64,000 bases of DNA, from the NCBI GenBank assembly GCA_045647765.1, contig JAZRMR010000005.1, forward strand, positions 1,522 to 65,521. The letters run 5' to 3'. Source of the stretch: Christensenellaceae bacterium (GTDB lineage Bacteria; Bacillota; Clostridia; Christensenellales; Borkfalkiaceae). Under the pieces are notes generated by a model. The model did not search any database. It was not told the DNA's origin and saw nothing but the letters and a program-made list of their open reading frames with translations. The position numbers and the translations under genes were made by a program. This document shows, piece by piece, positions 21,111 through 64,000 of this stretch; the stretch's first letter is position 1, and each line of letters opens with the position of its first letter.

Positions 21111-21315
21111 AAAATAAAATTCCCACCGAAAACGGTAGGAATACAAAAACACTAAAAAACAAGCGTTAACCATTTGAGCTTTAGCACCGTAGGGCGGTGT
21201 AATTGCGTTAAATCACGCCTTGTTTTCGACGTGGTCTGTTCACCAACTAATAGTGTCTCCACCATTTTGCGGTAGCAATCCATATCCCTAGGGTAGCCTT
21301 ACCTACCGGATTTAT
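21111..21315 (-). promoter_or_regulatory. M-box (ykoK leader) Mg2+ riboswitch with expression-platform terminator
   Basis: The minus strand reads GGTAGGTAAGGCTACC...GGAGACAC...GGTGAACAGA...AACAAGGCG...GTGCTAAAGCTC. These are the conserved M-box blocks as I recall them from the B. subtilis mgtE leader. The element ends with the terminator TTCCTACCG-tttt-CGGTGGGAA-TTTTATTTT (21143-21111). The terminator 5' arm is complementary to the aptamer 5' end. Confidence 0.85.
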
Positions 21316-21396
21316 TCGATTAATTACAGTGTACTGCGATACGCTAAATTTGTCAACGGATTTTAAATATTTTTTTACGCACTTTGTGAATTTTTA

Positions 21397-21996: not shown

Positions 21997-24165
21997 ATGA
22001 TTAAACTTATCGAAAAAGGCGTTTATTATCAAAACGGCAAACTTATTAAGGCAAAAACTGTCGACAAAGAGGCAAAAAAAGGCGGAATGGCTTATAAAAT
22101 CTTGCAAAGCCATAACCTTTCGGACAGTCCTGATAAACTTAATATTAAGTTTGACGAGATAACTTCGCATGATATAACTTACGTTGGGATAATTCAAACG
22201 GCAAAAGCAAGCGGTTTAGAAAAATTCCCCATACCGTACACGTTAACCAACTGCCACAACTCTCTTTGTGCTGTTGGCGGAACGATTAATGAAGACGACC
22301 ACGTTTTTGGTCTTTCTGCCGCTAAAAAATATGGTGGAGCATTCGTTCCTCCGCATTTAGCCGTTATTCATCAATATATGAGAGAGATGCGTGCTTTTTG
22401 CGGTGGTATGATTTTAGGGTCTGATTCACACACGAGATACGGTGCACTCGGAACGGTTGCCGTTGGCGAGGGTGGTCCCGAACTCGTTAAGCAGTTATTA
22501 GAGAGAACTTACGACCTAGATATGCCCGAAATTGTTGCAGTTAGCTTAAAAGGCAGATTAAGGAAGGGGGTCGGCCCGCACGACGTTGCGCTTGCGCTTG
22601 TTAAAGCAACTTTTAAAAACGGCTTTGTTAAAAACAGAGTATTAGAGTTCGTTGGTAACGGAATTAAAACGCTAAGCATGGATTTCAGAAACGGTATTGA
22701 CGTTATGACTACTGAAACCACCTGCCTTTCTTCCGTTTGGATAACCGATGAAAAGACAAGAAAATATTATGAACAGCACCAAAGAGTTGGCGCATACAAG
22801 GAAATGAAGCCCGAAGAAGGAACTTATTACGATAGAGGTATCGTTATAGATTTGTCCAAAATAGAACCTATGATTGCTCTTCCGTTCCACCCTTCTAACG
22901 CTTATACCATAAAAGATTTCCTCTCTCGTCCTTACGAACTTTTGAAAGAGGCAGAACAGGCTGGTCAAAAACTTCTTCCCGAAGGAAAGGGGCAATTTAA
23001 ACTCACCGACAAGATTGTTGACGGAAAAGTTTTTGTTGAACAAGGCGTTATTGCTGGTTGCGCAGGCGGTATGTATGAAAATATTGCAGAGGCAACGGAA
23101 ATACTTAACGGAATTGCTATTGATAATAACGATTTCACTTTGGACGTATATCCTTCAAGCCAACCCGTATATAAAGGTTTGGTAGACGGTGGATATATAG
23201 GTAGATTAATAGATAACGGAGCGGTTATAAAAACTGCTTTCTGTGGACCGTGTTTTGGCGCAGGAGACGTTCCGCAAAATAACGGACTTTCTATTCGCCA
23301 CACTACCAGAAACTTTGAAAGCAGAGAGGGGAGCAAGCCTGCAAACGGTCAACTTTCAGCAGTTGCGTTAATGGACGCAAGAAGTATTGCCGCAACAGCC
23401 GCTAACGGTGGCGCAATAACTTCTGCAATGGATTTGATTTATTCTGCAAAAATCAAAAAATACCGTTTCGACAATAAAATTTACAAAGCAAGGGTGTTTA
23501 ACGGCGTGGGCAAGGCAGACGGTAAACTGTCCTTAAAATACGGACCTAATATCGCAGACTGGCCAAAAATGCAACCGCTTAAAGACAACCTGCTCTTAAA
23601 AGTCGTTTCAGTTATAAATGACCCCGTTACCACGACTGATGAACTTATTCCATCGGGAGAAACTTCATCTTACCGTTCTAACCCGTTGAAACTTGCCGAA
23701 TTTGCGCTTTCTAGAAAAGACCCATTGTACGTTGGTAGAGCAAAAGCGGTTAGGGACGGAGAGTTCCCAGCAGAGTTAGGTTTTGAGGAGGATATTACTT
23801 CTTATGGAAGCGTTGTTTGCTCGATAAAACCTGGCGACGGGTCGGCGAGAGAACAAGCGGCTTCTTGCCAAAGAGTTTTGGGTGGCGTTGCAAATATTGC
23901 TAAGGAGTACGCAACCAAGAGATATAGAAGCAATCTTATCAATTGGGGTATGTTACCGCTTCTTTCCGACAGCAACGACTTTAACGTGGGAGATTACTTA
24001 TATATTCCAAACGTAAAAGAAAAAATCCAGAATGGAACGGGTGTGTTTGAGGCGCAAGTTATAGGCGATAACCCAAGAAACATCACCTTAAAAATGGACC
24101 CGCTAACAGAGGCAGAAAAACAAATCATTTTAAAAGGTTGTTTAATAAATTTTTATAAAAACTAA
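21997..24165 (+). CDS. Aconitase-family hydratase (aconitate hydratase-like, 722 aa)
   Basis: Fe-S ligand motifs GSDSHT and CGPCFG, and the C-terminal swivel-domain motif [17 protein letters not shown]. Confidence 0.85.
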
Positions 24166-24180
24166 AAAACATATAAAAAA

Positions 24181-24212
24181 ACACTCTGCAAAACATTTGC
24201 AGAGTGTTTTTT
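24181..24212 (+). terminator. Rho-independent terminator
   Basis: ACACTCTGCAAA-aca-TTTGCAGAGTGT-TTTTT. Confidence 0.75.
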
Positions 24213-46866: not shown

Positions 46867-47230
46867 TGAAAAAGTAATGGACGCATTTAAGAACCCTAAA
46901 AACGTTGGAGAAATAGAAAATCCAGACGGAATAGGAACGGTGGGAAACGCTTCTTGCGGAGATATAATGCAGATAACGCTTCGCATTGAAAACGAAGTTA
47001 TAACTGACGCAAAGTTTAAAACTTTTGGTTGCGCAGCGGCGATTGCCACCAGTTCAACAGCAACTGAAATGATAAAGGGAATGACGGTTGAAGAAGCGTT
47101 AAAAATAACAAACAAAAAGGTAATCGAATGTTTGGGAGGACTACCTTCTCAAAAAATTCACTGCTCGGTTTTAGCCGAAGAGGCAATAAAGAAAGCGATT
47201 GAAAATTACAGAGAAAAACAAAACGCATAA
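46859..47230 (+). CDS. nifU: Fe-S cluster assembly scaffold (NifU/IscU N-terminal type)
   Basis: Conserved Cys motifs GNASCGD, FKTFGCAAAIA and IHCSVLA. Overlaps nifS by 8 nt. Confidence 0.92.
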   Translation: MYSEKVMDAFKNPKNVGEIENPDGIGTVGNASCGDIMQITLRIENEVITDAKFKTFGCAAAIATSSTATEMIKGMTVEEALKITNKKVIECLGGLPSQKIHCSVLAEEAIKKAIENYREKQNA

Positions 47231-47233
47231 AAG

Positions 47234-47258
47234 AAAAACACGGCAAGCCGTGTTTTTT
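47234..47258 (+). terminator. Rho-independent terminator after nifU
   Basis: ACACGGC-aa-GCCGTGT-TTTTT. Confidence 0.75.
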
Positions 47259-47311
47259 GCATAAAACGATAAAATTCGCACATAATATTTTCAAGGATTA
47301 AAGGGGGAATT

Positions 47312-54974: not shown

Positions 54975-55682
54975 ATGCTGGAAATTAAAAATTTTTGTAA
55001 AAGTTATCAAAAGCCTGTTAAAGCGGTAGATGATTTAACGCTTTCTGTTAAGGCGGGGGAGATATACGGATTTATCGGTCATAACGGAGCGGGAAAATCT
55101 ACAACCATTAAAGCAATTGTTGGTGCGCTCGATTTTGAAAGCGGAGATATATTGATAGGCGGAAAATCTATTAAGACAAATCCCATAGAATGTAAAAGCG
55201 TGATGGCGTATATTCCTGATAATCCCGATATATACGATTATCTTACTGGAATACAATACATAAATTTCGTTTGTGATGTTTACGGGGTGGGAGAAGAGAG
55301 AAACGAGAGGATTAAAAAATTTGCTACCCTTTTTGAAATGGAGGCTAATTTAGGAGATATAATATCTGCATATTCTCACGGAATGAAGCAAAAATTAGTT
55401 TTAATTTCCGCACTCGTGCATAATCCAAAAGTATTGATTCTAGATGAACCGTTCGTTGGGTTAGACCCAGTTGCAACGCATAATTTAAAGACCATAATGC
55501 GTCAAATTTGTGATGAGGGCGGTGCGATTTTCTTTTCTTCGCACGTCCTAGAAGTGGTTGAAAAACTTTGCGATAGAGTAGGCATAATCAAGGGAGGAAA
55601 ACTCGTTAAAGAGGGCGAAGTTGCAAGCATAGTTGGCGATAAATCGCTAGAAAGTTTGTTCTTGGAGATTCAAAATGTCTAA
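54975..55682 (+). CDS. ABC transporter ATP-binding protein
   Basis: Walker A GHNGAGKST, signature YSHGMKQKL, Walker B LILDEPFVGLD. Confidence 0.92.
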   Translation: MLEIKNFCKSYQKPVKAVDDLTLSVKAGEIYGFIGHNGAGKSTTIKAIVGALDFESGDILIGGKSIKTNPIECKSVMAYIPDNPDIYDYLTGIQYINFVCDVYGVGEERNERIKKFATLFEMEANLGDIISAYSHGMKQKLVLISALVHNPKVLILDEPFVGLDPVATHNLKTIMRQICDEGGAIFFSSHVLEVVEKLCDRVGIIKGGKLVKEGEVASIVGDKSLESLFLEIQNV

Positions 55683-57210
55683 CTTTTTTAATTTAGTAAA
55701 AGTGCAGTTTTTGTCCTTCTTTGGCATAAACAAATTGCTATATTCAAAAAAGAAGAAAAAAGTTCAAGGACTATCTGGATTAATACTGCTTGGTGTGTTT
55801 TTCGTTTTGCTACTGGGTGGACTTTCCTTTTACTATTCGTATATATTTTCAAATTTTCTTGCCGTTGTACCTTTAATGTTTTCAATGTCGGCAATGGTTA
55901 ACTTGTTCTTTTCTTTTTATGCTTCATCGGGTACTATATATGGTTTTAAGGACTATCAACTGCTTGCGTCAATGCCCATTAAACCTCGAACGATAGTTGC
56001 TTCAAAACTATTCTTTATGTATATAGGCAACCTTATGCTGTCGATAATAATAGTTGCTTTTGCTTGTGTCGCTGATGCAATATTTGTTGCGCCTTTAAAT
56101 GCTTACGGCTATATTAGGCTTACAATAATGTTATTATTCTCGCCTTGTTTACCGATAGCCGTTTCGCTTGTTATTGGGGTTGTTATATCATACGTTTCAT
56201 CACACTTTATAAAGAAAAACATTATAGAATTGATAATGTATTTTATTGTTTTCGTTGGTGCGTTTGTAATAAGTTTTTTATCGACAGACAGTAGCGTTCA
56301 ACCTCTTTCGGTGATTAATAAAATATATTTCTGTTCAATTTTTGTCGTTAACGGCATATATGGTTGGTTAGACGTTTTATATTTTGTTTTAGTAAACGCT
56401 TTGCCTTGTGCTCTTATATGTGTTGTGGTTATAAAAACTTACAAAAAAATGAATTCAATTTTAACTTGCACCAAAAAGGTTAAGAAATTCAAACTTGCAA
56501 GTTATATTGCAAAAGGTCAGAAGCAAGCGCTTTTCAAGAGAGAAATGCAAAGGCTGTTTTCTTGTTCAATATACGCCTTAAACAATCTAGGCGGTACAGT
56601 TTTGGGAATGATAACAATGATAGCAATGGCAATTTTATTCAGCATTACTAAAATAGGATACGTTGAAGAAATAGCCAAAATCGTGCCTTTGGTATTAACG
56701 TTTACTTTTACTCTTACTCCAACCACTTGTTGCAGTATTTCTATTGAGGGGCAAACTTTTTGGCAATTAAAGACAGCGCCTATAAGTATGCGAGTTTTGA
56801 TTTTAACAAAATTATCAATAAACTTTATATTTGCAACTGTTCCGGCATTATTCTGTACATTGTTTTTTACTGTTTTAACGGGTATGCCTTACTATATGGT
56901 AATTATGCTCTGCGTGTTTGCCGTTACGATAACGCTTTTTGGCGGTGGGATAGGAATGCTTTGGAATTTAATTGTTCCAATGATGAAATGGGAAAACCCA
57001 AAACAGCCTGTTAAGAGTAGCGGAGCGTCGGGGTTAACGGTACTTACTAATTTTATAGTAACTGCAATATTAGTGTTAAGCGGATTTTTTATTCCTTTGT
57101 CTGCGCCTATAATAATTGCAATAATGACTTTGTTTTCCATAACAATTTGCATAATCGTTAACATAATAATATTAAAGAAAGGTGAAAAATTAATTGCAAA
57201 AAGGACGTAA
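55675..57210 (+). CDS. Polytopic membrane protein, putative permease partner of the preceding ABC ATPase
   Basis: 511 aa with at least 10 hydrophobic segments. 8-nt overlap with the ATPase gene. Confidence 0.7.
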   Translation: MSNFFNLVKVQFLSFFGINKLLYSKKKKKVQGLSGLILLGVFFVLLLGGLSFYYSYIFSNFLAVVPLMFSMSAMVNLFFSFYASSGTIYGFKDYQLLASMPIKPRTIVASKLFFMYIGNLMLSIIIVAFACVADAIFVAPLNAYGYIRLTIMLLFSPCLPIAVSLVIGVVISYVSSHFIKKNIIELIMYFIVFVGAFVISFLSTDSSVQPLSVINKIYFCSIFVVNGIYGWLDVLYFVLVNALPCALICVVVIKTYKKMNSILTCTKKVKKFKLASYIAKGQKQALFKREMQRLFSCSIYALNNLGGTVLGMITMIAMAILFSITKIGYVEEIAKIVPLVLTFTFTLTPTTCCSISIEGQTFWQLKTAPISMRVLILTKLSINFIFATVPALFCTLFFTVLTGMPYYMVIMLCVFAVTITLFGGGIGMLWNLIVPMMKWENPKQPVKSSGASGLTVLTNFIVTAILVLSGFFIPLSAPIIIAIMTLFSITICIIVNIIILKKGEKLIAKRT

Positions 57211-57253
57211 GATAAAAAAGTTGATTCTTAACGAAAAAATTTTTAAAAATTGC

Positions 57254-57283
57254 TTGACAGTTAATTGTTACGAGGAGTATAAT
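57254..57283 (+). promoter_or_regulatory. Consensus sigma-A promoter of the aromatic amino-acid operon
   Basis: TTGACA (57254-57259), 18-nt spacer, TATAAT (57278-57283). Confidence 0.65.
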
Positions 57284-57308
57284 TAAGACAATTTTTGGAG
57301 CAAAAAGA

Positions 57309-57371
57309 ATGAAAACAACAAGAAATTACTTTTATTTTTATTTTAATAGCAAGTTTTCAATATCTCGTTAG
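57309..57371 (+). CDS. Candidate attenuation leader peptide MKTTRNYFYFYFNSKFSISR (20 aa)
   Basis: GGAG (57297-57300) lies 8 nt before ATG at 57309. Six consecutive Tyr/Phe codons occupy 57327-57344 (TAC TTT TAT TTT TAT TTT). The TAG stop is at 57369-57371. A perfect terminator lies 40 nt downstream, and the first operon gene starts at 57475. Confidence 0.65.
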   Translation: MKTTRNYFYFYFNSKFSISR

Positions 57372-57411
57372 TAATTACTATACGGATTGTTTTTGCGTGA
57401 AAATGAAAACA

Positions 57412-57443
57412 GGGCTTTGTAGTGATTGCTACAAAGCCTTTTT
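57412..57443 (+). terminator. Attenuator terminator in the aro leader
   Basis: GGCTTTGTAG (57413-57422), loop tgattg, CTACAAAGCC (57429-57438), then TTTTT. The 10-bp stem is perfect. Confidence 0.8.
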
Positions 57444-57474
57444 AATTAGTTACAGTCATTTTTAGGAGTAAGTT

Positions 57475-58494
57475 ATGATTATCGTTGTTAGAAACGCTTG
57501 TGAAAAAACTCAGTTTGATAATTTAGTTGATTGGGTCAAAGATTTGGGGTTAGACGTGCACGTGAGCCGTGGCGAAACTTCAACCGTACTTGGACTGGTA
57601 GGGGATACGAGTAGAGTTGATATGGACTTAATAAAAAGCCTTGATATCGTTGAACAAGTTCAGCGTGTTCAAGAGCCTTATAAAAATGCGAACAGAAAAT
57701 TCCACCCCGAAGATTCACTAATAAACGTTTGTGGGCATAAGATAGGTGGTAAAAATTTCCACGTTATCGCTGGGCCTTGTTCAGTTGAGTCGGAAAGCCA
57801 AATTATTGAGGTTGCTGAAGCGGTTAAACTTGCGGGGGCAACAATGCTCCGTGGCGGGGCGTTCAAGCCAAGAACTTCGCCATATGCGTTCCAAGGTCTT
57901 AAAGATACGGGAATAGAATTATTAATTAAAGCCAAAAAGGAAACGGGACTTCCTATCGTAACAGAACTTTTAAGTGTTAATCACCTTGACCTCTTTGAAG
58001 AGGTTGACGTTATTCAAATAGGCGCAAGGAATATGCAAAACTTCGAACTTCTTAAAGAGGTTGGAAAGACGGGTAAACCTATACTTTTAAAGAGAGGGCT
58101 TGCGAACACTTTGCAAGAGTTGTTGATGAGCGCAGAGTATATTATGTCCGAGGGAGATTCCGAAGTTATTCTATGCGAAAGAGGGATAAGAACTTTTGAG
58201 ACAATGACGAGAAATACCCTTGACCTTTCGGCAGTGCCAGCGCTTAAAGATAAAACGCATCTTCCGATAATTATCGACCCCAGCCATTCAACGGGTATTG
58301 CAAAATACGTTGAACCTATGGCGCTTGCATCAGTGGGTGCGGGCGCTGACGGACTTATAATTGAAGTTCACAACGACCCTAAGCACGCTCTTTGTGATGG
58401 TGGGCAATCGCTTAATCCTGAACAATTCAGCACGCTTATGGGTAAGATTAAGGCTATGTTACCGCTAGTTGGAAAAGATTACGACGGGAAATAG
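57475..58494 (+). CDS. aroF: 3-deoxy-7-phosphoheptulonate (DAHP) synthase, type I-beta with N-terminal regulatory domain
   Basis: KDO8P-synthase-like core (VIAGPCSVES, RGGAFKPRTSPY, IIDPSHS), preceded by a roughly 70-aa ferredoxin-like domain as in Thermotoga-type enzymes. Confidence 0.9.
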   Translation: MIIVVRNACEKTQFDNLVDWVKDLGLDVHVSRGETSTVLGLVGDTSRVDMDLIKSLDIVEQVQRVQEPYKNANRKFHPEDSLINVCGHKIGGKNFHVIAGPCSVESESQIIEVAEAVKLAGATMLRGGAFKPRTSPYAFQGLKDTGIELLIKAKKETGLPIVTELLSVNHLDLFEEVDVIQIGARNMQNFELLKEVGKTGKPILLKRGLANTLQELLMSAEYIMSEGDSEVILCERGIRTFETMTRNTLDLSAVPALKDKTHLPIIIDPSHSTGIAKYVEPMALASVGAGADGLIIEVHNDPKHALCDGGQSLNPEQFSTLMGKIKAMLPLVGKDYDGK

Positions 58495-58508
58495 GCGTGG
58501 TGTCGATA

Positions 58509-59369
58509 ATGAATGTAGGTATAGTTGGATTAGGTCTTATAGGTGGCTCGCTAGGTAGGACCATAGTAAAGAAAACTAATAATACTGTGTATGCTTTTGA
58601 CGTGAGCGCAGAGGCAATGAAAACGGGTAAACTTTTATCAGCTTATCACAATGAACTCAATCAAGAAAATCTTAAAGAGTTAGACGTTTTATTTTTATCG
58701 CTTTATCCAAACACTTTGCAAGAAGAGTTGCCATATTATTGTGGAAATCTTAAAGACGGTGCTATCGTGTGTGATTGTTGCGGTAATAAAAGAAGAGTAG
58801 TAGCGCAAATGCAATCATTAAAAAAGCAATATCCCAATCTTAATTTTATAAGCACGCATCCTATGGCAGGGCGTGAATTTTCGGGGGTAAGCCACTCAAC
58901 GAGTTCTCTTTTTGAAAAGGCAAGTATGATTATAGTGCCTGTTGAATGCGACTTAAAAACTATTGCGTTTTTTAAATCGTTTTGCCTTGACTTAGGGTTT
59001 GGAAGCGTTGTCATAACCACTGCAAAAAATCACGACCAAATAATTGCATTCACTTCTCAACTTGCACACCTAGTTTCTAGTTCTTATATAAAAAGTCAAA
59101 CGGCAACAATGTTTATGGGTTTTTCAGCTGGCAGTTTTAGGGATATGACTAGGGTTGCAAGGCTTTCTCCCGAAATGTGGGCGCAGTTAACTATCGATAA
59201 TAGCGATTTTTTAGTAGAAGAACTTGATTGTATAATAAAAAACCTAACCGATTATAAAAATGCGCTTGAAAGAAAAGACGTTCAGCAAATGAAAAATCTT
59301 TTGAGCGATGGTAACGATAAAAAACTCTTGTCAGAAAAGATGAGAAGGAGTTGGAACAATGAAAAATAA
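58509..59369 (+). CDS. tyrA: Prephenate dehydrogenase
   Basis: MNVGIVGLGLIGGS Rossmann N-terminus and an HPMAG motif. The track start (GTG 58497) is also possible. Confidence 0.88.
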   Translation: MNVGIVGLGLIGGSLGRTIVKKTNNTVYAFDVSAEAMKTGKLLSAYHNELNQENLKELDVLFLSLYPNTLQEELPYYCGNLKDGAIVCDCCGNKRRVVAQMQSLKKQYPNLNFISTHPMAGREFSGVSHSTSSLFEKASMIIVPVECDLKTIAFFKSFCLDLGFGSVVITTAKNHDQIIAFTSQLAHLVSSSYIKSQTATMFMGFSAGSFRDMTRVARLSPEMWAQLTIDNSDFLVEELDCIIKNLTDYKNALERKDVQQMKNLLSDGNDKKLLSEKMRRSWNNEK

Positions 59370-60411
59370 TCTTTCTAAAAGAGAGATAACGGTTAACGCT
59401 TCAAAAAAATACAGAATATTAATTGGAAACCGTTTAATAGAGAGAACGGGCGAATTAATTAATGAAGTGATGCCAAAGTGCAAAATCGCCCTTATAACGG
59501 ACGATATTGTTGACGGCATATATTCTAAAACAGTTGAGCGGTCGCTTTCCGAACGTGGATTTTTTGTCGTCAAGAAAGTTTTTAAAGCGGGGGAAGAGAG
59601 CAAAAACTTAAACACGTATTTTGAGATTGTCAATTTTCTTGCCGAAAACTCTTTAACTAGAACAGATGCCATTGTTGCTCTCGGCGGTGGAGTAACCGGC
59701 GATATGGCAGGTTTTGCATCTTCAACCTATCTTAGGGGGATTAAATGCGTGCAAATACCCACCACCTTGCTTTCTCAAATTGATTCATCGGTAGGCGGAA
59801 AGACCGCAGTTAATCTATCTTTCGGGAAAAATTTAGTCGGGACATTCTATCAACCGTCGCTTGTTATTTGCGACATTGACACGCTAAATACTTTGCCAGA
59901 CCAAGTATATTTAGACGGAATGGGCGAATGTGTTAAATATGCGCTTTTAGATGAACAAATTTTCAATCTTCTAAACACGAGCAATATTGATTTAGAAGAA
60001 CTTGTTTATCACTGTGTTGATTACAAAAGAAAAATAGTTGAGCAAGATGAATTTGAGGGAGGCAAAAGAAAACTTTTAAACCTCGGACACACCTTTGCTC
60101 ACGGAATAGAAAAATTAAGCGGATATACCATTTCTCACGGTAAAGCCGTTGCTATGGGACTTAAAATTATAGCTGAAATTTGTTATAAACGTAATCTCCT
60201 CATTAGAGAAGAATATGATAAAGTAATTAAAATTATAAATGATAACGCACCAGTTCCTCCTTGTCCTTATACGCTTTCGGAGGTAGTCAATGCGTCGCTA
60301 TCAGATAAAAAACGTAGCGGAAACGATATTAGTATTATGACGGTGCATAAAATAGGGGACGTTAGAGAGAGCAAAATGACTATTGAGCAATATAAAGGAT
60401 TTATAGAATAA
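59359..60411 (+). CDS. aroB: 3-dehydroquinate synthase
   Basis: GGGVTGDMAGFAS, and the metal-binding motifs LNLGHTFAHGIE and SHGKAVA. Confidence 0.92.
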   Translation: MKNNLSKREITVNASKKYRILIGNRLIERTGELINEVMPKCKIALITDDIVDGIYSKTVERSLSERGFFVVKKVFKAGEESKNLNTYFEIVNFLAENSLTRTDAIVALGGGVTGDMAGFASSTYLRGIKCVQIPTTLLSQIDSSVGGKTAVNLSFGKNLVGTFYQPSLVICDIDTLNTLPDQVYLDGMGECVKYALLDEQIFNLLNTSNIDLEELVYHCVDYKRKIVEQDEFEGGKRKLLNLGHTFAHGIEKLSGYTISHGKAVAMGLKIIAEICYKRNLLIREEYDKVIKIINDNAPVPPCPYTLSEVVNASLSDKKRSGNDISIMTVHKIGDVRESKMTIEQYKGFIE

Positions 60412-61616
60412 TGGACGTTTGTATTAAGAACTCTACTCTTTTTGGAGAGATTAAAGCAATACCCTCAAAATCTTATGCTCACAGAATAGCAATTTGTAGG
60501 TTTTTAGCAGGTCTTGACCCCAGAGTAAATCTAAACGGCTTTACTTCTGCCGATATTGAGGCAACTGAAAATTGTTTAATCCGATTGCTGTCAGGGCAAA
60601 AGGTTCTTGATTGCAACGAATCAGGCTCAACGCTTAGGTTTTTACTTCCGCTTCTTTCTTCTTGCGGTGGTGAGTTTGAACTAATAGGAAGTAATAAACT
60701 ATTTTCTAGACCAAACGGGGAGTTGTTTAAGGTTTTACAAGAGCATGGCATCAAGATAAACCAATCGAAAAAAATTTATTTAAGCGGAAAACTCGGTTGT
60801 GGTGATTTTGCAATTAGAGGAGATGTCAGTTCGCAGTATATATCCGGACTTTTAATGGCGTTACCCACGCTTGATGGGGATAGCAGAATAACGTTAACTT
60901 CACCTCTTGTTTCAAAACCTTACGTTGATATAACCATAGAAGTTTTGAACTCTTTCGGGGTAAGCATAAAAGAAGAAAAAGATGGTTATTTCGTCAAAGG
61001 TAATCAAACTTTTTTGAAAAACGATATACTTCCCGAGGGGGATTGGTCGAATTCTGCGTTTTTTCTAGTCGGTGGCGCAATCAGTGATAAGGGCGTAACG
61101 GTAAGCGGATTAAAGGCAAATAGCGTTCAAGGCGATAGAAAAATTGTTGAAATTTTATTCAAGGCGGGCGCAGAAGTTTGTGTTAGTGAAAATGGCATAA
61201 CGGTTAAAAAAGGTCGGTTAGAATCATTTAAAATGGATTTTGAGGATTGTCCAGACCTTGTGCCTATTTGTGCGGTGCTGGCTTCGTTTGCAAGCGGAGA
61301 AACGGTAATTAAAAACGTTGAAAGGTTAAAAATTAAAGAAAGCGACAGAATTGAAAGCACGTTAAAAATGCTTTATGCGTTTAACGTGGAGGCAAAAAGC
61401 GACGGTAAACATATTATTATAAAAGGTGGACAGATAAAGAGCGGTCAAGTGGATTCTTTTAACGACCACAGGATAGCAATGGCTTCTGCTATTTTGGCTC
61501 TCGGTGTTAACGACGGCAAAAACTCAATAATAACCGACGCTTATGCTGTAAATAAATCTTATCCTAATTTTTATAAAGACTATAATTTGCTTGGAGGAAA
61601 AGCAAGTGATTTGTAA
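60411..61616 (+). CDS. aroA: 3-phosphoshikimate 1-carboxyvinyltransferase (EPSP synthase)
   Basis: IPSKSYAHR, LDCNESGSTLRFLLP and NDHRIAMA motifs. 1-nt TAATG overlap with aroB. Confidence 0.92.
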   Translation: MDVCIKNSTLFGEIKAIPSKSYAHRIAICRFLAGLDPRVNLNGFTSADIEATENCLIRLLSGQKVLDCNESGSTLRFLLPLLSSCGGEFELIGSNKLFSRPNGELFKVLQEHGIKINQSKKIYLSGKLGCGDFAIRGDVSSQYISGLLMALPTLDGDSRITLTSPLVSKPYVDITIEVLNSFGVSIKEEKDGYFVKGNQTFLKNDILPEGDWSNSAFFLVGGAISDKGVTVSGLKANSVQGDRKIVEILFKAGAEVCVSENGITVKKGRLESFKMDFEDCPDLVPICAVLASFASGETVIKNVERLKIKESDRIESTLKMLYAFNVEAKSDGKHIIIKGGQIKSGQVDSFNDHRIAMASAILALGVNDGKNSIITDAYAVNKSYPNFYKDYNLLGGKASDL

Positions 61617-62691
61617 GGATACAACCCAATCAACTTTTAAGGGTAGAAAATTAAATATTACCGTGTTTGGCGCTTCGCACGGGCCTGAGATTGGGGCGAT
61701 AGGTAAAGGGCTTGACGGGTTAACTGTGGACAAAGAAAAGTTACAGGCTTTTATGGATAGAAGAAAACCTAAAAACACTGCCTATTCAACCAAAAGAAAT
61801 GAGGGAGATAAGGTTATAACCGAATACGGGGTTGATGAAAAAGGCGTTATAACGGGGGAATTTAAAGCCGTTATAAAAAACACCGACCAAAGAAGTCAAG
61901 ATTATAAAAAAGTGTTAAAAGTGCCAAGGCCCTCTCACGCAGACTTAGTAGCGTGGCAAAAATACGGTGATAACTTTGATTATCGTGGCGGAGGAAAGTT
62001 TTCGGGGCGATTAACTGCACCCATGTGTATCGTAGGCGGGATTATTAAACAAAATCTTGAAAAGATGGGAATTAAAATCAACGCTTACATATCTAGCATA
62101 GGAAAAGTTGTTGCCAAAGGTTATAATGATTTAGACCCCGAAACTTTTGATTTTGATAAAATTGACAATGATTTTCCCGTTGTTGATAATAGTAGGTTAA
62201 CCGAGATGCAAGAACAGATAGAGTTTGCAAGAAAAGAGGGCGATTCTGTCGGCGGGGTTATAGAATGTGTGATAACGGGTGTTCCCGTGGGTGCAGGAGA
62301 ATATATGTTCGATAGCATAGAAAGTGTCATTTCAAGCCTTGTGTTTGCAGTGCCTGCGGTTAAAGGGATTGAATTTGGAAAAGGTTTTGAAATTTCCTCA
62401 ATGAGAGGAAGTCAAGCAAACGACCAAATTTATTTTGACGGAGAAAAAATTAAAACAAAAACCAACAACAACGGTGGAATAAACGGCGGGATGGCAAACG
62501 GTATGCCAATAACGTTTAGAGTTGCAATAAAGCCAACTCCGTCAATATCGAAAGAACAAGACAGCGTGGATTTAGAAAAAAATAAAAACGTAAAAATCAA
62601 AATAGAAGGAAGGCACGACGCATGCATTGTTCCGAGAGCCGTTCCCGTAATAGAAGCAATATCTGCAATAGCAATTTTTGATTGCTTATAG
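61606..62691 (+). CDS. aroC: Chorismate synthase
   Basis: FGASHGPEIG, RPSHAD and GRHDACIVPRA motifs. GGAGG (61593-61597) lies 8 nt before an in-frame GTG at 61606. The track uses TTG at 61591. Confidence 0.9.
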   Translation: MICKDTTQSTFKGRKLNITVFGASHGPEIGAIGKGLDGLTVDKEKLQAFMDRRKPKNTAYSTKRNEGDKVITEYGVDEKGVITGEFKAVIKNTDQRSQDYKKVLKVPRPSHADLVAWQKYGDNFDYRGGGKFSGRLTAPMCIVGGIIKQNLEKMGIKINAYISSIGKVVAKGYNDLDPETFDFDKIDNDFPVVDNSRLTEMQEQIEFARKEGDSVGGVIECVITGVPVGAGEYMFDSIESVISSLVFAVPAVKGIEFGKGFEISSMRGSQANDQIYFDGEKIKTKTNNNGGINGGMANGMPITFRVAIKPTPSISKEQDSVDLEKNKNVKIKIEGRHDACIVPRAVPVIEAISAIAIFDCL

Positions 62692-62701
62692 AGGAGAAAA
62701 C

Positions 62702-63847
62702 ATGAAACTTGAACAAATAAGAAATCAAATAGATAACATAGATGACCAAATTGCCACTCTATATCAACAGAGAATGGACCTCGTTAAAGCCGTTTGTGAG
62801 GCTAAAAAAAGTAGCGGGAAAGCCGTTTCAGACCCAGAAAGGGAAAGAAAAATACTCTTAAGAGTTTCTGACAAGGTAAGTGAAGAAAACCAAGTTTACG
62901 TAAAAAGGGTTTTTGAAACGTTGTTTGAAACAAGTAAAGCCGTTCAGATGGCAAACGCAGAATATCACTCTTTAATCGGAGAGAAAATAAAGCAAACTAT
63001 TGATAAGGGTGCGCTTAAATTTCCAGTAAAAGCCAAAGTTGCTTGTCAAGGGGTTAGCGGTGCTTATTCGGGAATTGCCGCTGACAGACTTTTTGAACTT
63101 GCAGACGTAACATATTTTAAAAATTTCGAAGGTGTATTTCAAGCGGTTGAAAAGGGTTTTTGCAAGTACGGCGTTCTTCCTATTGAAAATAGTTCGGCGG
63201 GGTCTGTTAACCAAGTTTATGACCTTATGAAAGAACATAAATTCTATATCGTGAGAAGTATTAAAGTTCCTATCGTTCACTGTCTTGTGGCAAAAAAAGA
63301 AACGGCATTAACAGACGTAAAGGAAATTTTATCGCACGAACAGGCACTTTCGCAATGTAAACGTTATTTAGAGAAATTTCCGCTCGCAAAAATAACCACC
63401 TCTCCAAATACTGCGGTTGCAGCAAAGACCGTTTCGGAGAGCGACAGAAAAGATATAGTTGCCATATCGTCTAGGGAGTGCGCTGATTTATATGGCCTTA
63501 AAATATTGCAGAGTAATATTCAAGACAGCGACAACAACTATACACGCTTTATTCTAATTGCAAAAGAAATGGAGTTTTATTCTGATGCGAAAAAGATAAG
63601 CATAATGACCACTCTTCCACAAAACACGCCGGGAAGTTTAAATAAATTATTATCTAAGTTTTCAAACCTTGGATTGAATTTAACAAAACTGGAATCTCGC
63701 CCCATTATGGGAACGGGCTTTGAGTTTATGTTCTACTTTGATTTTGAATGCGACGTGAAAGATAAAGCCGTCATAAATCTTTTATCTGAACTCGACAACT
63801 CCACCGAGCAATTCACTTTCCTCGGCGCATACGGAGAGGAAAACTGA
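62702..63847 (+). CDS. pheA: Bifunctional chorismate mutase / prephenate dehydratase (P-protein)
   Basis: N-terminal CM domain (LEQIRNQIDNIDDQIATLYQQRMDL), a PDT domain (VACQGVSGAYS...TRFILI), and a C-terminal ACT domain (ESRP). Confidence 0.9.
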   Translation: MKLEQIRNQIDNIDDQIATLYQQRMDLVKAVCEAKKSSGKAVSDPERERKILLRVSDKVSEENQVYVKRVFETLFETSKAVQMANAEYHSLIGEKIKQTIDKGALKFPVKAKVACQGVSGAYSGIAADRLFELADVTYFKNFEGVFQAVEKGFCKYGVLPIENSSAGSVNQVYDLMKEHKFYIVRSIKVPIVHCLVAKKETALTDVKEILSHEQALSQCKRYLEKFPLAKITTSPNTAVAAKTVSESDRKDIVAISSRECADLYGLKILQSNIQDSDNNYTRFILIAKEMEFYSDAKKISIMTTLPQNTPGSLNKLLSKFSNLGLNLTKLESRPIMGTGFEFMFYFDFECDVKDKAVINLLSELDNSTEQFTFLGAYGEEN

Positions 63848-64000
63848 TGGAAAATCAACAATCGTTCGGGCTTCTTGGCAGAAAACTCGGGCATAGTTAT
63901 TCTAAAATTATACATAATTTGCTCGGCAGATATTCTTATGAATTATTTGAGGTTGAACCTGATAAATTAGAGCAATTTATTAATAGCAAAGTAAATGGGT
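63847..64000 (+). CDS. aroE: Shikimate dehydrogenase, 5' part (runs off the window)
   Basis: MENQQSFGLLGRKLGHSYSKIIHN resembles the AroE N-terminal GLIG-x-HS-SP-x-HN motif. TGATG overlap with pheA. Confidence 0.7.
   Translation, partial: MENQQSFGLLGRKLGHSYSKIIHNLLGRYSYELFEVEPDKLEQFINSKVNG

Follow-up and report, generated by a model that had tools for sequence, protein, structure and literature searches.

How is transcription of an aromatic amino acid biosynthesis operon adjusted to the supply of its own end products in a member of the Clostridia? This question is raised by a 64,000-nucleotide (nt) stretch of DNA from a Christensenellaceae bacterium (contig JAZRMR010000005.1; the whole stretch is called the window below), in which the aroF-tyrA-aroB-aroA-aroC-pheA genes are preceded by a small open reading frame (ORF) with six alternating Tyr and Phe codons and by an intrinsic terminator. 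An earlier note on this DNA, made from the sequence alone, had read the arrangement as a Tyr/Phe leader peptide whose ribosome, by its position, decides whether the terminator upstream of the aroF operon forms. Our comparative analysis supports this core reading, and we consider it highly probable that the region attenuates transcription by a ribosome-mediated leader-peptide mechanism, with charged tRNA-Tyr and tRNA-Phe as the sensed signal and read-through into the aroF operon as the controlled step. Four features of trpL-, pheL- and hisL-type attenuators can be recognized in the sequence, namely a leader ORF with a Shine-Dalgarno (SD) sequence, a run of end-product codons, an intrinsic terminator, and a candidate antiterminator pairing that excludes the terminator.

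Anatomy of the leader region

The elements that make up the leader region are as follows.

57254-57283 (+): sigma-70-type promoter, with the -35 element TTGACA at 57254-57259, an 18-nt spacer and the -10 element TATAAT at 57278-57283
near 57290 (+): predicted transcript start
57297-57300 (+): SD sequence GGAG of the leader ORF, 8 nt 5' of the ATG at 57309
57309-57371 (+): leader ORF of 20 codons, MKTTRNYFYFYFNSKFSISR, with ATG at 57309 and stop codon TAG at 57369-57371
57327-57344 (+): putative regulatory codons TAC TTT TAT TTT TAT TTT (Tyr-Phe-Tyr-Phe-Tyr-Phe), at which a ribosome is proposed to stall when Tyr-tRNA or Phe-tRNA runs low
57411-57443 (+): intrinsic terminator (attenuator), with a 13-bp stem 57411-23/57428-40, loop GATT and T5 at 57439-43
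57464-57477 (+): aroF ribosome-binding site AGGAG at 57464-57468 and aroF start codon ATG at 57475, both from sequence

The promoter, with the hexamers and spacer described earlier, matches the consensus at 12 of 12 positions and is the only such match within 55000-64000; the TTGACA and TATAAT elements are also retained in all 14 close relatives. The mini-ORF that the earlier note had placed behind a GGAG sequence is likewise present with its six alternating codons. ORFs of this composition are rare in the window, as at least six Phe or Tyr per 8 residues are found in only 4 of 644 ATG-initiated ORFs of 6-45 amino acids on both strands, and the leader ORF, one of those four, is flanked by a consensus promoter and a terminator directly 5' of the aromatic operon. 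The hairpin had been described as a perfect 10-bp stem followed by five Ts; that core (GGCTTTGTAG/CTACAAAGCC) is present, and pairing extends beyond it to 13 bp (57411-57440) with a predicted folding energy of -18.3 kcal/mol. Across 14 relatives 97% of the terminator cells are paired and 6 of the 13 pairs have changed on both sides, a result that none of 500 shuffles equalled. The ribosome-binding site of aroF follows the T-tract at a distance of 21 nt and is not part of the terminator hairpin, and a scan of the window saw no second promoter between the terminator and aroF.

A Tyr/Phe-rich mini-ORF is widespread upstream of aroF

We searched for comparable leaders at aroF loci from three sources: 80 loci from species-representative genomes, almost all Clostridia, with AroF identities of 62-91% (set 1); 80 metagenome loci with identities of at most 75% among the matches listed (set 2); and 10 distinct close relatives with identities of 83-90% that were retrieved by exact-protein look-up (set 3); a protein search lists more than 100 AroF relatives with identities of 83-91%. 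In set 1 a locus was counted when an ATG ORF with at least five Phe or Tyr in an 8-residue window was located no more than 300 nt upstream of aroF. By this measure 74% of the 80 loci in set 1 have a Tyr/Phe mini-ORF, against 0.9% of shuffled sequences and 0% of reverse complements. When all sets are pooled, with identical leaders occurring in more than one set, a Tyr/Phe-rich mini-ORF is found upstream of aroF on the same strand at 131 of 167 loci, nearly all of them clostridial. The conservation at orthologous operons for which the earlier note had proposed to look is thus evident. The start codon is ATG in 125 of these 131 leader ORFs, an SD-like purine-rich motif precedes 99 of them in a crude pattern scan, and a strong terminator follows the leader stop codon in 102, at a median distance of 31 nt. 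Carriers include Oscillospiraceae, Christensenellaceae, Lachnospiraceae, Ruminococcus, and cultured bacteria such as Angelakisella massiliensis (L025), Pseudoflavonifractor sp. AF19-9AC (L068), Christensenella (L006) and Faecalibacterium (L022). Beyond the aromatic run the leader peptides have little in common (examples are MKKVFNYYFYNFYFFRPY, MKRNIFAAEYFYFYFINKS and MIISRISNAYYYYYGYLR), with flanks, length and C-terminus all variable. Nine loci of set 1 lacked a Tyr/Phe mini-ORF in a first scan, among them ones binned to Treponema, Spirochaetales and Bacteroidaceae, and an Rfam scan found a T-box upstream of aroF in none of the nine.

Coding constraint on the leader and signs of amino acid specificity

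An alignment of 14 close leaders (A1) allowed us to ask how the mini-ORF itself changes. The peptides of these relatives follow the pattern MK..YFYFYF(N/Y)(S/N)(K/R)FSISR. From the ATG to the last codon of the Tyr/Phe block, indels measure 3, 3, 3, 6 and 3 nt, all multiples of three. Each of the three Tyr positions exhibits synonymous swaps between TAC and TAT while the Phe codons stay TTT, and the sole replacement within the six-codon block is a change of the first Tyr to Asn in L081, in which a 3-nt indel displaces the Phe/Tyr run. A single 1-nt indel occurs in the alignment; it falls after the Tyr/Phe block, at column 68 (about 57357 of the window), and shifts the leader stop codon by 12 nt. 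Close relatives consequently have two leader lengths, one of 20 amino acids with the stop codon within UAGUAAUU, and one of 14-16 amino acids with a UAA or UGA 12 nt earlier, inside a sequence that we describe below as the 5' strand of helix A; the latter form is found in L001, L002, L081, L163 and L173. The indels in threes, the synonymous Tyr swaps and the conservation of the SD sequence and ATG together indicate that the mini-ORF is probably read as codons.

The amino acid content of the leaders also varies with the genes that follow. The median Y/(Y+F) of the leader is 0.44 when tyrA follows aroF (n=90) vs 0.25 when aroB follows (n=22; Mann-Whitney p=6e-7), and tyrA follows in 6 of 6 Tyr-rich leaders vs 2 of 10 Phe-rich leaders (Fisher p=0.007). 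Since the Tyr:Phe ratio tracks the presence of tyrA, this result supports a mixed Tyr and Phe sensor fitted to an operon that has both branch enzymes, which is how the earlier note had explained the co-occurrence of mixed codons with tyrA and pheA. The link between Tyr:Phe ratio and tyrA also provides a clean example of a leader peptide that evolves with the content of its operon.

Upstream RNA that could compete with the terminator

Four further segments, all between the Tyr/Phe codons and the terminator, are needed to describe how the terminator could be prevented from forming.

57348-57359 (+): 5' strand of helix A, AGCAAGUUUUCA, within the ORF just 3' of the Tyr/Phe codons; the antiterminator arm proposed in the earlier note
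57372-57385 (+): 5' strand of helix C, UAAUUACUAUACGG, beginning right after the stop codon; a second antiterminator candidate
57387-57399 (+): TTGTTTTTGCGTG, nearly invariant in 14 relatives; 5' strand of hairpin B (57387-95 with 57404-12)
57404-57416 (+): shared 3' strand X, UGAAAACAGGGCU, which can form helix A with 57348-59 or helix B with 57387-95

Helix A joins AGC..GUUUUCA at 57348-57359 with UGAAAAC...GCU at 57404-57416, and as strand X at its 3' end runs into the base of the terminator 5' arm, this is the competing helix of 7+3 bp that the earlier note had seen by eye as invading that arm. It turns out to be the optimal duplex between the 3' part of the ORF and the terminator-base region (-9.0 kcal/mol), and it is also the minimum free energy (MFE) structure of a nascent transcript that reaches 57416 (-11.6 kcal/mol). 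Column counts cannot be relied on here because the variable region contains indels, and we therefore compared the stability of cognate and non-cognate strand pairs from 13 relatives. In this test helix A gave -6.9 kcal/mol for cognate vs -5.1 kcal/mol for non-cognate pairs (permutation p<2e-4), and the terminator, used as a control, gave -18.1 vs -15.3 kcal/mol at the same level (p<2e-4). Compensating changes can be read directly in L166 (GUUUUCU/AGAAAAC), L161 (GUCUUCA/UGAAAGAC) and L176 (AAGUUUUC/GAAAACUU), and in 12 of 14 relatives the optimal helix A pairing takes up 7-13 nt of the 13-nt terminator 5' arm. Helix A therefore has support from covariation as well as from folding.

A second set of pairings consists of helix C, in which 57372-57385 pairs with CU.UGUAGUGAUUG at 57415-57428 (the distal terminator arm and loop), enclosing the helix B hairpin 57387-95/57404-12. 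With the terminator loop transcribed and the 3' arm still absent, helices B and C together are the MFE structure, at -14.5 to -15.2 kcal/mol as against -11.9 for helix A, and this structure recurs in the stalled-state folds of 14 of 14 relatives. Among these 14 relatives 95% of helix C cells are paired, with only one-sided, wobble-compatible changes and no pair that has changed on both sides; in addition, the test of cognate against non-cognate strands was not significant for helices B, C and D. The helix C 5' strand may alternatively form a small local hairpin with 57366-57371. No double changes and no covariation were found for the local hairpin P1 (57366-84), and likewise no double changes for a helix of 57363-67 with 57396-400.

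Several further observations concern these segments. A self-complementary 12-mer occurs twice, as UAGUAAUUACUA at the leader stop codon (57369-57380) and as UAGUGAUUGCUA at the terminator apex (57420-57431); the two copies are identical in several relatives, and both self-folding of a copy and pairing between the copies are possible. The sequence GCAAAAA between the SD sequence and the ATG (57300-57306) is perfectly complementary to UUUUUGC at 57391-57397, with a marginal result in the cognate/non-cognate test (p=0.015), and in other subfamilies a similar UUUUGCUGC element further downstream is paired with the F-A-A codons that precede the Tyr/Phe run. This pairing may limit re-initiation or may act as an anti-antiterminator.

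Within the T-rich segment 57387-57399, alignment A1 shows no variation at T101-T104, G105, C106 and T108, and a similar run of Ts plus GC follows the leader stop codon in the distant subfamilies L007, L008, L013, L015, L019, L033 and L082. By likeness to the T-rich site of Bacillus subtilis tlrB (PMC6851288), this segment may be an RNA polymerase pause that lets the ribosome catch up.

Ribosome position and the predicted availability of the antiterminator

We then placed ribosomes on the leader by geometry. With the first Tyr or the first Phe codon (57327 or 57330) in the A site the footprint would extend to about 57340-57343, leaving the 5' strands of both helix A and helix C free. With the ribosome at the TAG at 57369 the footprint would cover about 57354-57381, which takes in 57354-59, or half, of the helix A 5' strand and 57372-81, or most, of the helix C 5' strand; a full-length fold with about 57354-57381 masked contains the terminator. 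The earlier note had supposed that a ribosome stalled on the Tyr/Phe codons leaves the helix A arm free and that one at the stop codon masks it. By this geometry a stall on the first Tyr/Phe codons would leave that arm free, and a ribosome at the stop codon would cover half of it.

The five relatives with short leader ORFs are informative in this regard. Their stop codon lies inside the helix A 5' strand and 11 nt before that of helix C, such that a terminating ribosome would mask helix A and not the helix C 5' strand. This geometry, together with the covariation, favors helix A as the common antiterminator.

Pairing between the terminator 5' arm and upstream RNA was also assessed in 94 distinct leaders. 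The median pairing gain in the stalled state is -9.5 kcal/mol; shuffling of the upstream RNA reduces it to -4.7 (Wilcoxon p=8e-14), and placing a ribosome at the stop codon reduces it to -2.9. In 68 of 92 leaders a terminating ribosome would cover at least part of the antiterminator 5' strand. Textbook 1-2-3-4 layouts are recognizable by eye in subfamilies L004, L007, L010 and L015.

A model for attenuation of the aroF operon

The mechanism that we favor would run as follows. Transcription would begin near 57290 and a ribosome would translate the 20-codon leader. When Tyr and Phe are both plentiful the ribosome would reach the TAG at 57369, where it covers parts of the helix A and helix C 5' strands, so that 57404-57428 would stay free to form the 13-bp terminator with 57428-40 and polymerase would halt at the T-tract. 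Under a shortage of Tyr or Phe the ribosome would instead stall at the first hungry codon (codon 7 if Tyr is lacking, codon 8 if Phe is lacking), and the RNA 3' of its footprint would be free. Helix A could then form once 57404-16 emerges and would hold the base of the terminator 5' arm, after which helices B and C would be able to capture the rest of the arm, delaying the terminator hairpin and allowing read-through. The strict alternation of Tyr and Phe codons would make the leader an OR gate for two end products whose branch enzymes, tyrA and pheA, are both encoded in the operon. In this scheme we infer the stalling, the identity of the decisive helix, the timing of ribosome relative to polymerase (possibly set by a pause at the T-run 57387-99) and the behavior of untranslated transcripts. 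As to the decisive antiterminator, we regard it as roughly an even call that this is helix A, alone or acting first.

Several results weigh against the attenuator model or against parts of it. The antiterminator gain in the window's own subfamily is -2.5 to -6 kcal/mol, which does not improve on the shuffled controls. The 7-bp core of helix A can coexist with the full terminator, and in the window only the 3-bp extension competes with it, while helices B and C are without detectable covariation by either test. A convincing anti-antiterminator of the 1:2 type was sought among the leader pairings and none was found, and untranslated RNA is also predicted to fold into the antiterminator. Equilibrium folding always favors the terminator state (-28.3 vs -18.2 or -20.9); thus, any switch must be kinetic, as it is in classical attenuators. 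Finally, transcription in B. subtilis is reported to outrun translation (Johnson et al., Nature 2020), which would make ribosome-dependent termination hard to achieve without a pause.

A more elaborate form of the model is a three-way kinetic switch, in which helix A acts first and helices B and C second in competition with the terminator, and in which a T-rich pause at 57387-99 holds polymerase until the ribosome has reported on Tyr/Phe status. We look on this form as speculative and rather unlikely. If true, it would mean that coordination of ribosome and polymerase is routine for amino acid sensing across the gut Clostridia, for which reliance on T-boxes is assumed, and that the Tyr:Phe codon ratio is evolutionarily tuned to the branch enzymes as an adjustable two-input OR gate.

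Alternative explanations

The alternative that is closest to the favored model keeps the same class of device but assigns the roles of the helices differently, with helices B and C (57372-85/57415-28 on the hairpin 57387-95/57404-12) as the decisive antiterminator and helix A as an anti-antiterminator that sequesters strand X alongside the terminator. This assignment draws on the lower energy of helices B and C once RNA has been made up to the terminator loop (the -14.5 to -15.2 vs -11.9 given above), on the location of the helix C 5' strand directly after the stop codon, where the terminating ribosome masks it, and on the compatibility of the helix A 7-bp core with the terminator. The same layout is also found in subfamilies L004, L007 and L010 and family-wide, and the self-complementary 12-mer is duplicated at both sites, with 95% of cells paired in the 14 relatives. 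However, it is helix A that covaries and that enters the terminator arm in most relatives, neither helix B nor helix C exhibits covariation, and in the five short-ORF relatives the terminating ribosome stays short of the helix C 5' strand. We therefore treat this assignment as possible but somewhat doubtful.

The remaining alternatives depart from sensing of tRNA charging altogether. A nascent-chain arrest peptide of the TnaC type, which responds to free Tyr or Phe or to another tunnel ligand, would look the same in sequence since it too combines a translated leader with a downstream terminator. An arrest peptide is nonetheless very improbable here, as only the Tyr/Phe run is conserved while flanking residues, length and C-terminus vary freely, as the Tyr:Phe ratio follows biosynthetic gene content in the way expected of a supply sensor, and as induction by an end product would have the wrong sign for a biosynthetic operon. 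Control of the terminator could also be exerted in trans by an RNA-binding protein or a tRNA, with the mini-ORF being incidental U-rich sequence; Firmicutes often use TRAP-, PyrR- or T-box-like systems for aromatic pathways, and the near-invariant segment 57369-57399 could serve as a protein-binding site. Against such a regulator, the leader matches no Rfam family at threshold and has neither a T-box core nor a (G/U)AG array, the indels in threes, synonymous Tyr swaps and SD/ATG conservation point to translation, and a Tyr/Phe ORF is present at 74% of loci vs 0.9% of shuffles, so that we give this explanation very little credence as well. Least credible of all is that the mini-ORF is simply a gene for a functional small hydrophobic peptide unrelated to aroF control. 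It does have its own promoter, SD sequence and terminator, but it sits directly upstream of aroF on the same strand at 131 of 167 loci from different species and metagenomes, the peptide is not conserved outside of the Tyr/Phe run, and no second promoter that would serve aroF separately was found between terminator and aroF in the window.

The operon and other features of the window

The genes downstream of the leader were assigned by NCBIfam matches above or near the curated cut-offs, and their order agrees with that given in the earlier note. The terminal aroE in that order corresponds to an ORF whose start resembles the N-terminus of shikimate dehydrogenase (AroE) at the end of the window.

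57475-64000 (+): operon aroF-tyrA-aroB-aroA-aroC-pheA-(aroE start)
from 57475 (+): aroF, 3-deoxy-D-arabino-heptulosonate 7-phosphate (DAHP) synthase, NCBIfam match of 486 bits
from 58497 (+): tyrA, NCBIfam match
from 59359 (+): aroB, NCBIfam match
from 60411 (+): aroA, NCBIfam match
from 61591 (+): aroC, NCBIfam match
from 62678 (+): pheA, chorismate mutase/prephenate dehydratase, NCBIfam match
63847-64000 (+): AroE-like N-terminus, ORF start MENQQSFGLLGRKLGHSYSKIIHN, which begins at the pheA stop codon and exits the window

In several close relatives the interval between the leader terminator and aroF contains an insertion of 200-520 nt that the window does not have. These insertions are located at 1290-1540 in L001, 660-1200 in L161, 930-1200 in L166, 975-1200 in L167 and L170, 865-1200 in L174 and 970-1200 in L177. 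They share a repeat unit, ..TTCGATAACCA.CAAGGT.AATCTCACCC.AAACAC.TCGCGAGCCT.., at times in two copies, which looks like a small mobile repeat similar to a miniature inverted-repeat transposable element (MITE). An Rfam scan of the insertions gave no match. Elsewhere in the window there are two more small ATG ORFs with at least six Phe or Tyr in 8 residues, at 24125-24196 (-) and 47206-47283 (-), one of which is MCEFYRFMQKTRLAVFFFYAFCFSL.

Searches for known RNA families

At the gathering thresholds of Rfam 15, a scan of the whole window found no family in the leader region. The sole match in the window at this threshold is an M-box (magnesium) riboswitch, RF00380, at 21162-21317 (-), which scores 91 bits vs a threshold of 44 and is unrelated to the leader. 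A permissive cmscan (E<=10) of 57150-57550 with all 4227 Rfam families returned only sub-threshold noise, namely SNORA4, Phe_leader, snoR74 and patAB. Phe_leader (RF01859) reached 17.2 bits (E=2.5) vs a gathering score of 55, so the window leader is not a member of that family. The T-box leader (RF00230) had no match at the gathering threshold or at E<=10 in the window leader, where the T-box core motif is also absent. A TRAP-regulated leader would have 9-11 (G/U)AG triplets at a spacing of 2-3 nt; the seven triplets of the window leader are scattered, and no chain with the correct spacing is longer than one. An Rfam scan of 15 aroF loci that have no mini-ORF or a weak one found a T-box upstream of aroF in none of them, and the single T-box among these loci, in L078, is downstream of aroF.

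The leader family is thus absent from Rfam 15 at threshold, and literature searches for a Tyr/Phe leader in Clostridia gave no description of one. Aromatic amino acid control in Clostridia is usually attributed to T-boxes. If confirmed, the leaders described here would add a large and easily recognized family of classical attenuators to this class of bacteria. They would allow the regulation of aroF operons to be annotated automatically in hundreds of metagenome-assembled genomes from the gut and could serve as a compact natural reporter of Tyr- and Phe-tRNA charging, and they would offer a natural test case of how closely translation follows transcription in Firmicutes besides B. subtilis.

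Comparison with known systems

The class of mechanism that we propose, classical leader-peptide attenuation, is already known, and it is the clostridial family of Tyr/Phe leaders that is undescribed in the literature searched and in Rfam 15. The premise of the earlier note that leader-peptide attenuation of amino acid operons is classically proteobacterial was too strong, given precedents in Corynebacterium glutamicum, Acholeplasma, Lactococcus and bacilli. Among these, the Leu/phe leader of Lactococcus lactis (RF01743; Weinberg et al., PMC2864571) and the His leaders upstream of hisS and hisZ in bacilli (Naville and Gautheret, PMC2965389) demonstrate that classical amino acid leader peptides coexist with T-boxes in Firmicutes, although these concern other amino acids, operons and orders; neither the Leu/phe nor the His leader families appeared at an E-value of 10 in the leader-region cmscan.

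Two precedents concern aroF itself. In C. glutamicum a Phe-Tyr-Phe leader peptide, aroR, controls aroF and responds to Phe and not to Tyr, according to the account of Neshat et al. 2014 in PMC11802643. As summarized there, aroR is like the window leader in being a short mixed Phe/Tyr leader ORF upstream of a DAHP synthase gene, at which stalling raises operon transcription. Unlike the window leader, it belongs to an actinobacterium and has three regulatory codons in place of six or more alternating ones, and the window operon adds tyrA and pheA. This is a likeness by description in that summary, and homology is not assumed. The second precedent is uORFC-13-1, a predicted aroF upstream ORF with 24 representatives in Acholeplasma, a Firmicutes-related lineage, and in unassigned environmental sequences (Brewer et al. 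2021, PMC8632094), which is exclusively upstream of aroF and has been proposed to be a sensor of ribosome speed. Compared by description only, all of its parts have a counterpart in the window, including a -35/-10 promoter, a ribosome-binding site, a start codon, a Phe-coding U-run and an adjacent intrinsic terminator upstream of aroF. However, its consensus is described in PMC8632094 as coding for at least one Phe, and Tyr is unmentioned.

With the Escherichia coli pheL-pheA (Phe_leader RF01859) and trpL leaders, the window leader shares a run of end-product codons, a terminator, and an exclusive upstream pairing that would depend on ribosome position, but it differs from them in that its sensor is mixed for Tyr and Phe, in that there is no clear 1:2 anti-antiterminator, and in that it has two antiterminator candidates. 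Finally, in regards to regulation by ribosome position within the Firmicutes, the B. subtilis tlrB (yxjB) and bmrCD leaders (PMC6851288, PMC4191407) sense ribosome-stalling antibiotics and not tRNA charging. They are nevertheless like the proposed attenuator in that the position of a ribosome on a leader ORF sets intrinsic termination in a Firmicute, and polymerase and ribosome are kept in step in tlrB by NusG-dependent pausing at a T-rich site (PMC6851288).

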